46,117 nt of DNA from the IMG/VR virus record IMGVR_UViG_3300045988_041336. One strand, given 5' to 3'. Below are positions 4,526 to 5,488 of the stretch, piece after piece (positions within the stretch are counted from its first letter, which is position 1; every line of letters starts with the position of its first letter). A model generated the notes under the pieces. That model was not told the origin of the DNA. It worked only from the letters and a program-made list of their open reading frames with translations, and did not search any database. Position numbers and translations under genes: made by a program. The stretch comes from a virus.

Positions 4526-4562
4526 AAAGCCCGAGGGATCATCCCTCGGGCTTTGCTTTTTT
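4526..4562. terminator. Intrinsic terminator shared by convergent genes
   Basis: 13-bp stem aaagcccgaggga/tccctcgggcttt followed by gctttttt. The toxN-like stop codon lies in the loop. Confidence 0.75.
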
Positions 4563-5051
4563 GGTTTTGTGATTTGGATCGTATCGTTTGCTTGCGCGCT
4601 CAAGCTCCTTGAAATCACATGAGATTCGGCAAAGAAATTCGTTTGTCTTGTTCACAACCTCAAAATATGTTTTTGCAGAACGCTGGAAAAGAGCGGCGCG
4701 GTTGCGGTCGATCTCGGCGAGCTGGTTATACAGCAGAGCCCTGTAGCGCTTATCCGGCTCATCGTCAATGTTGAACTCAATAAGCGCACAATCCGGAACG
4801 GGAACCATGTTGTTGAAGCCAAGCATACCAAGCCTTCCGCCGTCCAGCTTGAAGATATGCACGCCAGACTTTATTTTAGCGTGGTTTGGCTTTGGGGATT
4901 CCATGGGAACGAAATATCGGTATTCCCCAACGAACAGCACAACGCCGACATATGGCCTGCGTGAGTCCTTGTTGAATTGAACACGATTGTCACAGGTGTG
5001 CAAAAACCGTATGTATTTATCAGATATTCGGTAGATGCTCAATTTCTCCAT
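4539..5051 (-). CDS. toxN: ToxN/AbiQ-family type III toxin (endoribonuclease)
   Basis: ATG at 5051 after AAGGAAGG. The 170-aa product (MEKLSIYRISDKYIRFL..RPYVGVVL..YFVPMESPKP..FKL..LGFNNMVPV..YRALLYNQL) is recognisably ToxN/AbiQ-like. Tandem RNA repeats and a terminator lie immediately upstream. Confidence 0.85.
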   Translation of the reverse strand: MEKLSIYRISDKYIRFLHTCDNRVQFNKDSRRPYVGVVLFVGEYRYFVPMESPKPNHAKIKSGVHIFKLDGGRLGMLGFNNMVPVPDCALIEFNIDDEPDKRYRALLYNQLAEIDRNRAALFQRSAKTYFEVVNKTNEFLCRISCDFKELERASKRYDPNHKTKKAKPEG

Positions 5052-5070
5052 ATTTCGACCTTCCTTGCAA

Positions 5071-5105
5071 AAGAAAAGCGGGACAGTTCGTGCCGTCCCG
5101 CTTTT
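5071..5105 (-). terminator. Intrinsic terminator between the antitoxin repeats and the toxin gene
   Basis: On the minus strand: GCGGGAC-10 nt loop-GTCCCGC followed by TTTTCTTTT, about 20 nt upstream of the toxin ATG. Confidence 0.8.
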
Positions 5106-5120
5106 GATTGCCCATGCAAT

Positions 5121-5240
5121 TTTTCGTTCCCTACTTAACGGCAAGGGTTTTCCGCTTTTTTCATTTCCTACTTAACGGCAAGGAGTCTCCGCTTTTTTCG
5201 CTCCCTACTTAACGGCAAGGGGTTTCCGCTTTGATGGGCG
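5121..5240 (-). ncRNA. ToxI/antiQ-like antitoxin RNA: 3 full 37-nt tandem repeats plus a partial unit
   Basis: Plus-strand units start at 5130, 5167 and 5204 (period 37). Minus-strand core is AAAGCGGA-N4-CCTTGCCGTTAAGTAGG. A ~10-nt partial unit lies at 5121-5129. Same strand as the toxin gene and directly upstream of it. Confidence 0.8.
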
Positions 5241-5292
5241 GTGATGAACTGGAGACGTTCGTCACTTTGTATGCAGATCACTCTGCACCTCT

Positions 5293-5320
5293 AGTATATC
5301 AAGCCAGACGAAAAATGCAA
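5293..5320 (-). promoter_or_regulatory. Promoter of the type III TA operon
   Basis: On the minus strand: TTGCAT (5320..5315), 16-nt spacer, extended -10 TGaTATACT (5301..5293). Confidence 0.6.
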
Positions 5321-5488
5321 GCAAAAAGTTAACTTTTTTTACGACGCAAAACGACATTGAAATTATAACTTTTCGGAATTGCACACAAATGCAGCATAAA
5401 TGCACGCAAGTGCAACCCTTAGATTTTTGCGGTGCGAGATAATGATAGCAGGAGCTGGCCAGCTTACTATTTTATCGGAGGTACTACT

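Follow-up and report, generated by a model that had tools for sequence, protein, structure and literature searches.

Type III toxin–antitoxin (TA) systems, whose RNA antitoxin escapes protein-only annotation, are known to protect against phages and to stabilise replicons. Published toxIN systems have repeats of 31–62 nucleotides (nt; mean 38.1) in 1.9–5.6 copies and toxins with a mean length of 168 amino acids (aa) (PMC3401426), and the cleavage preferences of the toxins ToxN_Bt and AbiQ are A/AAAA and A/AAA, respectively (PMC5086642). A toxIN carried by a phage has been described in C. botulinum phage D-1873 (PMC3401426), two further phage homologues of ToxN are in GenBank, and, according to a 2025 survey, the only phage type III system on record ahead of its tenpN hits was that of one C. 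botulinum plasmid prophage (PMC12283969). Here we analyse a candidate locus of this kind in IMG/VR virus record IMGVR_UViG_3300045988_041336 (46,117 nt; the whole of this stretch is called the window below). With a probability of roughly 0.85, we consider the locus to be a complete toxIN-family type III TA operon that a temperate gut-Clostridia phage of siphovirus type carries as an autonomous accessory cassette ("moron"). Its array of 37-nt repeats in 3.1 copies lies in the middle of the published toxIN range (PMC3401426).

On the minus strand the elements follow one another in the order sigma-70 promoter, structured leader, three 37-nt ToxI units, intrinsic terminator, ribosome-binding site (RBS) and toxN. 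An earlier examination of the letters and open reading frames (ORFs), which we call the sequence-only reading, had recognised the order promoter, repeats, terminator and toxin as the architecture of type III TA systems, and this order is both present here and conserved across relatives. The features, with the support from RNA folding, Tandem Repeats Finder (TRF), repeat finding or covariation where it applies, are as follows.

5293..5320, minus strand: promoter, with -35 TTGCAT (5320..5315), a 16-nt spacer and an extended -10 TGaTATACT (5301..5293)
5271..5288, minus strand: leader hairpin 1, GUGCAGA-GUGA-UCUGCAU, at the predicted 5' end of the transcript (RNA fold)
5241..5265, minus strand: leader hairpin 2, GUGACGAAC-GUCUCCA-GUUCAUCAC (RNA fold)
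5228..5240, minus strand: C-rich leader tract CGCCCAUCAA, which abuts and overlaps the start of unit 1; candidate 5' arm of a bracketing stem
5196..5232, minus strand: ToxI unit 1 (37 nt), AAAGCGGAAACCCCUUGCCGUUAAGUAGGGAGCGAAA (TRF, repeat finding, covariation)
5229..5226 with 5215..5212, and 5221..5218 with 5206..5203, minus strand: helix A and helix B of unit 1
5159..5195, minus strand: ToxI unit 2 (37 nt), with a compensated U-A pair in helix B (UCCU...AGGA)
5120..5158, minus strand: ToxI unit 3 (37 nt, 5158..5122) and two A of the A-run (TRF, repeat finding)
5106..5119, minus strand: clade-specific spacer UUGCAUGGGCAAUC from the last unit to the terminator; candidate 3' arm of the bracketing stem, or a small local hairpin
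5069..5105, minus strand: intrinsic terminator between toxI and toxN, AAAAGCGGGACGG-loop-CUGUCCCGCUUUU, the stem being followed by UUUUCUUUU (RNA fold)
5101..5095 and 5084..5078, minus strand: the two arms of the terminator stem, GCGGGAC/GTCCCGC, with the U-run TTTTCTTTT at 5077..5069
5059..5066, minus strand: RBS AAGGAAGG, 7 nt before the ATG
4539..5051 (stop codon included), minus strand: toxN, encoding a 170-aa toxin of the ToxN/AbiQ endoribonuclease family
4526..4554, both strands: bidirectional terminator with a 13-bp stem, common to toxN (minus) and the convergent helix-turn-helix (HTH) gene at 4275..4523 (plus)

The toxN stop codon lies within the loop of the bidirectional terminator. 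The toxin ORF with its RBS, the extended -10 promoter, the three head-to-tail repeats (the same three copies in TRF and in repeat finding), their core AAAGCGGA-N4-CCTTGCCGTTAAGTAGG (found in all three units) and the GC hairpin with its U-run ahead of the toxin ATG (seen in the RNA fold and in a direct scan) had all been described in the sequence-only reading and were recovered as described. Its count of 3.3 copies with a partial unit of about 10 nt needs correction, as TRF gives 3.1 copies and what separates unit 3 from the terminator stem is a spacer of 14 nt; a partial unit is absent, although AAAAGCGGG, with which the stem opens, looks like a unit start. A longer, 201-aa version of the toxin ORF from a TTG start (4539..5144) was rejected as spurious, since it passes through the terminator and is shared by no homologue, while the start Met of the 170-aa form is common to all 30 aligned homologues.

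The assignment of the toxin to the ToxN/AbiQ family, which had originally been made by recognition alone, was borne out by a profile search. The protein matches Pfam PF13958 (ToxN_toxin) over its full length, with 151.5 bits against a cutoff of 25 and profile positions 1–159 of 159 covered, and it matches the PADLOC AbiQ profile at 2e-44; at E<=1, no Pfam family other than ToxN_toxin and no PADLOC family other than AbiQ was found. Sequence searches of the PDB with phmmer retrieved the four toxins 4ATO (B. thuringiensis ToxN, 1e-19), 4GLK (AbiQ), 7D8O (E. coli ToxN) and 2XD0 (P. atrosepticum ToxN). An AlphaFold2 model computed with 30 homologues reached a pLDDT value (predicted local distance difference test) of 90.6 and a predicted template modelling score (pTM) of 0.85, and Foldseek found the four solved ToxN/AbiQ toxins as its only significant PDB matches, with template modelling (TM) scores of 0.78–0.83 and the next match at E > 0.3; the model thus predicts that the toxin adopts the ToxN fold. 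The profile, PDB sequence and fold matches all place the protein in the ToxN/AbiQ family, and one member of the subfamily has already been named a ToxN/AbiQ toxin by NCBI (P0110). A CptN or TenpN homologue was considered and rejected: no such family appeared at E<=1, and the 37-nt repeat falls below the 40–48 nt of cptIN and the 39–57 nt of tenpIN.

The active site was mapped from E. coli ToxN (Lys33, Thr52, Ser53, Lys55 and Trp57; PMC8860590) by way of a HMMER alignment. The equivalent residues here are Arg32, Glu51, Ser52, Lys54 and Asn56. Arg32, Ser52 and Lys54 are kept and invariant, so that the Ser-x-Lys motif is retained, and the change from Lys to Arg at the Lys33 position is also found in E. 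coli clusters 4 and 5 (PMC8860590). The gene is intact and full-length, and the alignment of 30 homologues contains 43 invariant columns.

TRF places the array at 5120..5232 with a period of 37, 3.1 copies, 86% matches and a score of 184, and repeat finding gives three copies at 37-nt spacing. In the 46-kb window the unit pattern is matched without a mismatch exactly three times, and relaxed matches elsewhere in the window occur at chance (58 versus 51 +/- 7 expected). Because all three zero-mismatch matches fall inside the array, the array is not a chance feature. The units are separated by A-rich linkers, GAAAAAAGCGG, which are consistent with the known cleavage preferences of ToxN_Bt and AbiQ.

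We aligned 150 distinct units from related loci with MAFFT, which required one indel column, and tested an H-type pseudoknot composed of helix A (columns 4–7/18–21, GCGG/CCGU) and helix B (columns 12–16/26–30, CCCUU/..AGGG). Paired cells amount to 90.9% (77.5% in shuffles), and both sides have changed in 216 cells as against 77 in shuffles. The covariation score is 0.414 compared with 0.153 for shuffled alignments, a value reached in 0 of 500 shuffles, and it drops to 0.05–0.10 when the partner strand is slid by 1–3 columns. The only variable Watson–Crick pair of helix A, 5–20, is CG in 139 units, AU in 11 and unpaired in none, and in helix B the pair 15–27 is UA in 51, AU in 47, GC in 42 and CG in 8. 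Two additional pairs were left outside the core model: 8–17, which is mostly unpaired (A.G), and 11–31, which is paired in only about half of the units. The units of the window have GCGG/CCGU in helix A and CCCU/AGGG in helix B. Thus, the strong covariation indicates that each unit can form an H-type pseudoknot.

The geometry of the unit (stem 4, loop 4, stem 4–5, loop 1, stem 4, loop 4–5, stem 4, the last strand being preceded by a conserved G) is that of the ToxI template of Blower et al. 2012 (PMC3401426). The sequence-only reading had found the repeat unlike known ToxI units. In part this holds, as no described RNA family in Rfam fits the array at E<=10, where the search returned only terminator-driven noise; it does not hold for the fold, which follows the ToxI template, or for a 26-nt core that is shared with an array on a Bacillus plasmid and is taken up below. 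Units within one array diverge (median identity 0.70; 0.87 in the window) with the pseudoknot kept in each. The terminator-proximal unit is the most conserved, with helix B reading CCCUU at position 3 in 35 of 59 distinct three-unit arrays and at positions 1 and 2 in 10 and 5 of the 59, respectively. Strict positional orthology of units across arrays gave a weak signal (0.66 versus 0.63 identity), and only the last unit stands out. In many loci the register of the repeats extends into the terminator stem, which opens with AAAGCGG or AAAGAGG.

The toxin has 654 protein database relatives at E<=1e-10, from which we took 159 loci (L001–L159), 80 of them in species genomes and 79 on IMG/VR viral contigs. 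The genomes are nearly all metagenome-assembled genomes of gut or rumen Clostridia (Oscillospiraceae, Acutalibacteraceae, Faecousia, Lachnospiraceae), along with a Colidextribacter isolate. Among the 151 loci with enough upstream sequence, 112 have an array of 35–38 nt in 2–3.3 copies by TRF; two further TRF hits, at loci with 43–44% toxin identity, were discarded as unrelated 28-nt AT-rich repeats. At toxin identities of at least 50% a spaced array of 2–3 units is present in all 128 analysable loci. The anchors AAG[CA]GG, 34–39 nt apart, number three in 94 of these, four in 17, two in 16 and one in 1, and where there are four the last one is the start of the terminator stem. Copy number differs among near-identical phages (2.1 versus 3.1 at 82% toxin identity). 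Homologues at 36–45% identity gave no clean array with default TRF settings, and relaxed settings revealed similar GAGG...CCU units in some of them.

The regulatory elements are conserved along with the array. A promoter occupies the homologous position in 92 of 95 distinct related loci, with TATAAT (60) or TATACT (25) as the -10 element and TTGATT, TTGACT or TTGCAT as the -35; TTGCAT itself serves in 15 distinct related loci. These data support, at the level of consensus sequences, a single promoter upstream of the repeats. A hairpin with a T tail lies between array and toxin in 72 of 73 distinct post-array segments according to a direct stem-loop/T-tail scan. The intergenic hairpin was not called by a generic terminator scanner, though it is clear in the RNA fold and in the direct scan. 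At the sequence level, then, everything that defines the toxIN family and can be tested in silico was found at this locus, save for one catalytic position that differs.

The first 55 nt of the window are identical to its last 55 nt (1..55 and 46063..46117), from which it follows that the window is a complete phage genome, assembled either as a circle or with terminal redundancy. A tail-fibre gene with collagen-like (G-x-y) repeats spans the join. Terminase, portal, major head protein, tape measure, holin, endolysin, integrase and a repressor-like regulator are all encoded, and the temperate lifestyle proposed in the sequence-only reading agrees with this full genome and its integrase and repressor-like regulator. 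Beside the integrase gene (7278..8384) lies a tRNA 3' fragment (7152..7184, minus strand) made up of the T-arm GAGAGTTCGAATCTCTC, the acceptor stem and CCA. Rfam gives the fragment a sub-threshold tRNA-like match of 21 bits, and the region 7152..7238 (minus strand) is likely the core of an attP by which the phage would insert into a type II tRNA gene.

Some 2 kb separate the cassette from the prophage end that bears the integrase and attP. It is transcribed in the direction of the integrase and repressor and against that of the lysis genes and of three functionally uncharacterised genes downstream, and it has a terminator at either end. Its position between the lysis genes and attP, which had been pointed out before, turned out to be a variable slot beside the integrase/attP region. 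IMG/VR contains 391 relatives of the neighbouring 212-aa gene, and we examined 80 of these loci (L160–L239), defining the slot as the interval from the HTH/endolysin genes to the 212-aa gene (4524..5431 in the window). Only 10 of the 80 carry ToxN, each with an array region. The slot is empty in five, where the junction measures 122–170 nt, and the rest hold 0.8–2.4 kb of other cargo, comprising a dCTP-deaminase-like membrane protein, DUF3800, an NYN-domain RNase, a SocA/Panacea antitoxin, DUF2283 and unannotated proteins. Compared with the empty-site phages, the insert runs from about 4512 to 5305 (some 795 nt) and contains the whole cassette from terminator to promoter. The slot thus looks like a hypervariable defence/TA hotspot, and because the insert spans the whole cassette, we interpret the latter as a moron within it. 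A direct repeat, AAATGCAAGCAA / AAATGCACGCAA, was also observed here; its copies, 85 nt apart, lie at 5313..5324, overlapping the -35 at the cassette edge, and, on the backbone side, at 5398..5409 upstream of the 212-aa gene. Similar AAATGC motifs occur in empty-site phages, and the repeat may represent either an operator or a recombination junction.

The solved Pectobacterium, B. thuringiensis and E. coli systems suggest how the cassette would work. The terminator would lead to far more ToxI than toxN mRNA, and by analogy ToxN would cut the precursor at the A-rich linkers into single units. Each processed pseudoknot would then bind two ToxN molecules head-to-tail and occlude their active sites, giving a closed protein–RNA complex. 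Should transcription of the cassette stop, for instance when a superinfecting lytic phage shuts off the host, the labile RNA would decay and the freed ToxN would cleave A-rich RNAs, aborting the infection. Loss of the prophage would release ToxN in the same manner, so the cassette would also stabilise lysogeny. Because of the gene orientation, the cassette's own promoter and the flanking terminators, we infer that it may serve as an exclusion module expressed in the lysogen.

Several observations weigh against the reading as a toxIN operon that works in this way. The -35 matches the consensus at only three of six positions and is therefore weak, which is why a generic promoter scanner did not call the toxI promoter. 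Unit 1 is preceded by CAAA only, with no long A-run, so that its 5' processing is uncertain. No NCBIfam model matches the toxin. Moreover, Glu51, which is invariant in the subfamily, replaces the equivalent of the catalytic Thr52, and Asn56 replaces Trp57; T52V abolishes the toxicity of ToxN_Ec (PMC8860590), and owing to these two replacements the chemistry or specificity of the enzyme could differ. Finally, sequence alone does not separate abortive infection from prophage stabilisation.

This last point bears on the alternative that survives best, in which the molecular system is the same and its main role is prophage addiction or stabilisation, cells being killed post-segregationally once the prophage is lost or excised. 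We regard this as possible, though as the less likely division of roles. ToxIN_Bt is reported to promote plasmid retention (PMC4615649), the cassette sits only about 2 kb from the integrase/attP end, and classical TA parts (SocA/Panacea, DUF2283) are among the occupants of the same slot. Yet an anti-phage role is established for ToxIN_Pa, AbiQ and E. coli ToxIN (PMC5086642, PMC8860590), and the slot also holds candidate defence proteins outside the TA class, namely the dCTP-deaminase-like protein and the NYN RNase. Addiction and exclusion are not mutually exclusive, as one mechanism underlies both. Since the best-studied relatives are abortive infection (Abi) systems, and in view of the company kept in the slot, we would give exclusion a larger share than prophage stabilisation.

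It is quite improbable that the array serves mainly as an anti-defence decoy directed, during infection, at related ToxN toxins of the host or its plasmids, in the manner of the PhiTE pseudo-ToxI, with toxN as a passenger. Phage escape from ToxIN through RNA mimicry is documented (PMC3475682), and a 26-nt ToxI core is identical in a Bacillus plasmid array whose toxin is only 39% identical. However, toxN is intact, full-length and constrained, as the invariant columns attest, and the toxin accompanies the array region in all ten ToxN-bearing phages at the slot. Furthermore, no orphan units were found elsewhere in the genome, and the cassette is oriented away from the lytic genes.

We consider it more improbable still that the locus is an inactive relic whose nuclease was killed by the Thr-to-Glu change and whose repeats persist by inertia. 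The replaced residue is indeed one whose mutation abolishes toxicity in ToxN_Ec. Nevertheless, Glu51 and the motif VPMESPKPNH around it are invariant in the 30 homologues, which share 57–82% identity and come from many species and phages, a pattern that speaks for selection and not decay; the RNA pseudoknot is maintained by compensatory changes, and promoter and terminator are kept in more than 95% of loci. Because of the invariance of VPMESPKPNH, the change is best read from the alignment as a fixed trait of the subfamily. Nor is Thr52 conserved universally, since in the HMMER alignment AbiQ carries Leu there. That the repeats act as DNA (iterons, operators or recombination sites) is scarcely tenable, for although tandem repeats near regulatory regions can be protein-binding sites and an AAATGC(A/C)(A/C)GCAA motif recurs by the promoter, covariation preserves Watson–Crick pairing in pseudoknot register, which DNA-binding sites do not need, and in every locus the units lie between promoter and terminator on the toxin strand.

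Returning to the toxIN operon, its leader is itself structured and conserved. Of 76 distinct leaders, 74 contain at least two hairpins, with a median z of -3.8 against dinucleotide shuffles, and in 72 of the 76 pairing starts no more than 8 nt from the predicted 5' end; the stem sequences vary by locus. In Firmicutes, RNAs are classically stabilised by a hairpin at the 5' terminus, and leader hairpin 1 may play this part here. The hairpins are followed by a C/U-rich tract, CACCUCCUUUC in many loci, that resembles the 3' end of 16S rRNA. Anti-Shine–Dalgarno pairing of the tract with the toxN RBS was rejected, because cognate pairs were no better than non-cognate ones (z = 0.15). In the window the tract is complementary to the spacer at 5119..5106 (9 bp with one bulge, -12 kcal/mol), GCCCAUCAA (5236..5228) pairing with UUG-C-AUGGGC (5119..5110). 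Across loci, the tract pairs with the post-array segment at -9.1 kcal/mol for cognate and -8.2 kcal/mol for non-cognate combinations (z -3.45, 4 of 5000 permutations, with phylogeny uncorrected), and both sides of the pairing have changed in three relatives (L009, L107 and L136). The partner is the spacer in the clade of the window and the 5' arm of the terminator stem in other clades, where the pairing would make the tract an antiterminator.

These observations suggest a hypothetical stem that brackets the array. A fuller proposal, in which a two-hairpin leader and a tract that pairs past the last unit bracket the array and compete with the terminator in many loci, forming an RNA switch, is in our judgement doubtful. 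If true, such a switch would set the ToxI:ToxN ratio by controlling read-through or gate the processing of the end units, and it would be a regulatory layer undescribed for type III TA systems and the only part of the locus that is possibly new biology.

Elsewhere in the genome three further features were observed. A hexanucleotide repeat of the CGGCTA type (16249..16438, 31.7 copies) lies in a 248-aa ORF (16166..16912), near whose N-terminus it encodes Gly-[Ser/Asp/Tyr/Thr] dipeptide repeats (GDGYGSGSGYG...). About 6.5 copies of a 10-nt iteron of the ATACGAACGT type at 14415..14583, followed by repeated C-tracts (CCCCC...), are found in or beside the ORF 14171..14938, and this region looks like a replication origin. 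Two phage tRNA genes, Asn-GTT (32251..32326) and Met-CAT (32565..32641), are located between the terminase large subunit and portal genes.

The locus is thus a clear member of the known toxIN family in an under-documented setting, an integrating phage, and would not surprise a specialist. A complete cassette is present in an integrating gut phage, and the subfamily also occurs on the 79 IMG/VR contigs and in many genomes of gut and rumen Clostridia. Because the slot swaps ToxIN with other TA and defence genes, the data suggest that prophages trade modules at this position to keep competitors out or to ensure that they themselves are maintained. The hotspot context and the covariation model of 150 units add to what was known of the family, and the units constitute a natural panel of compensatory variants for the study of toxin–RNA specificity.

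Among the described systems, ToxIN_Bt of B. thuringiensis plasmid pAW63 (4ATO) gives the best PDB match both in sequence (E 1e-19) and in fold (TM 0.79). ToxIN_Bt and the Bacillus plasmid loci share with the present locus the operon order, about three repeats of 34–37 nt and A-run linkers that fit A/AAAA (PMC5086642). They differ in that protein identity is only about 31–39% and in being plasmid-borne, whereas the present system belongs to an integrating phage; the 5' segment of the unit is UUGG there and GCGG here, and the active site has Thr there and Glu here. AbiQ/antiQ of L. lactis plasmid pSRQ900 (4GLK) has a toxin of the same family (fold TM 0.81), tandem upstream repeats of about 35 nt and A-rich cleavage, but its toxin shares 24% identity in the structural alignment and is plasmid-borne in a lactic acid bacterium. 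ToxIN_Pa of P. atrosepticum plasmid pECA1039 (2XD0/2XDD) and E. coli ToxIN (7D8O) have the same operon architecture, a fold TM of 0.78–0.79 and the H-type pseudoknot template with the same pattern of stems and loops, while their 5.5 repeats of 36 nt are unrelated in sequence and cleavage occurs at AA/AU or GAAAU.

The phage-borne ToxN homologues are those of C. botulinum phage D-1873 (35% identity), C. difficile pCD1602_4 (41%) and Fusobacterium phage phiFN37 (26%). Of these, at least pCD1602_4 and D-1873, the latter being a plasmid prophage (PMC3401426), are extrachromosomal, whereas the present phage integrates, as its integrase and candidate tRNA-fragment attP indicate, and is one of a large group of related gut Clostridia phages with the cassette's variable slot. 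The phage-plasmid pCD1602_4 (L241) carries an array of 37 nt in 3.2 copies whose units start with AAAGCGG, and the two-hairpin leader of our clade was not seen at its locus. A ToxN homologue on plasmid pl192 of Bacillus sp. AR4-2 (L240) is accompanied by an array of 36 nt in 3.1 copies, AAATTTGGAGAGCCCATGCCGTAAGTTGGGACCGAT; its toxin matches 4ATO at E 3e-31 and is not ToxN_Bt itself. This array occupies 252..360 of the upstream extract, with an apparent degenerate extra unit upstream of it. The 26-nt core GGAGAGCCCATGCCGTAAGTTGGGAC is identical between the Bacillus plasmid array and units from gut Clostridia at 39% toxin identity. Because of this identity and the AAAGCGG start of the pCD1602_4 units, the ToxI of the window belongs, by comparison with the Bacillus plasmid homologue and the C. 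difficile phage-plasmid, to a widespread Firmicutes type in which the RNA core has diverged far less than the protein. Near-identical ToxI cores beside very different toxins raise the possibility that phage- and plasmid-borne systems cross-neutralise each other.

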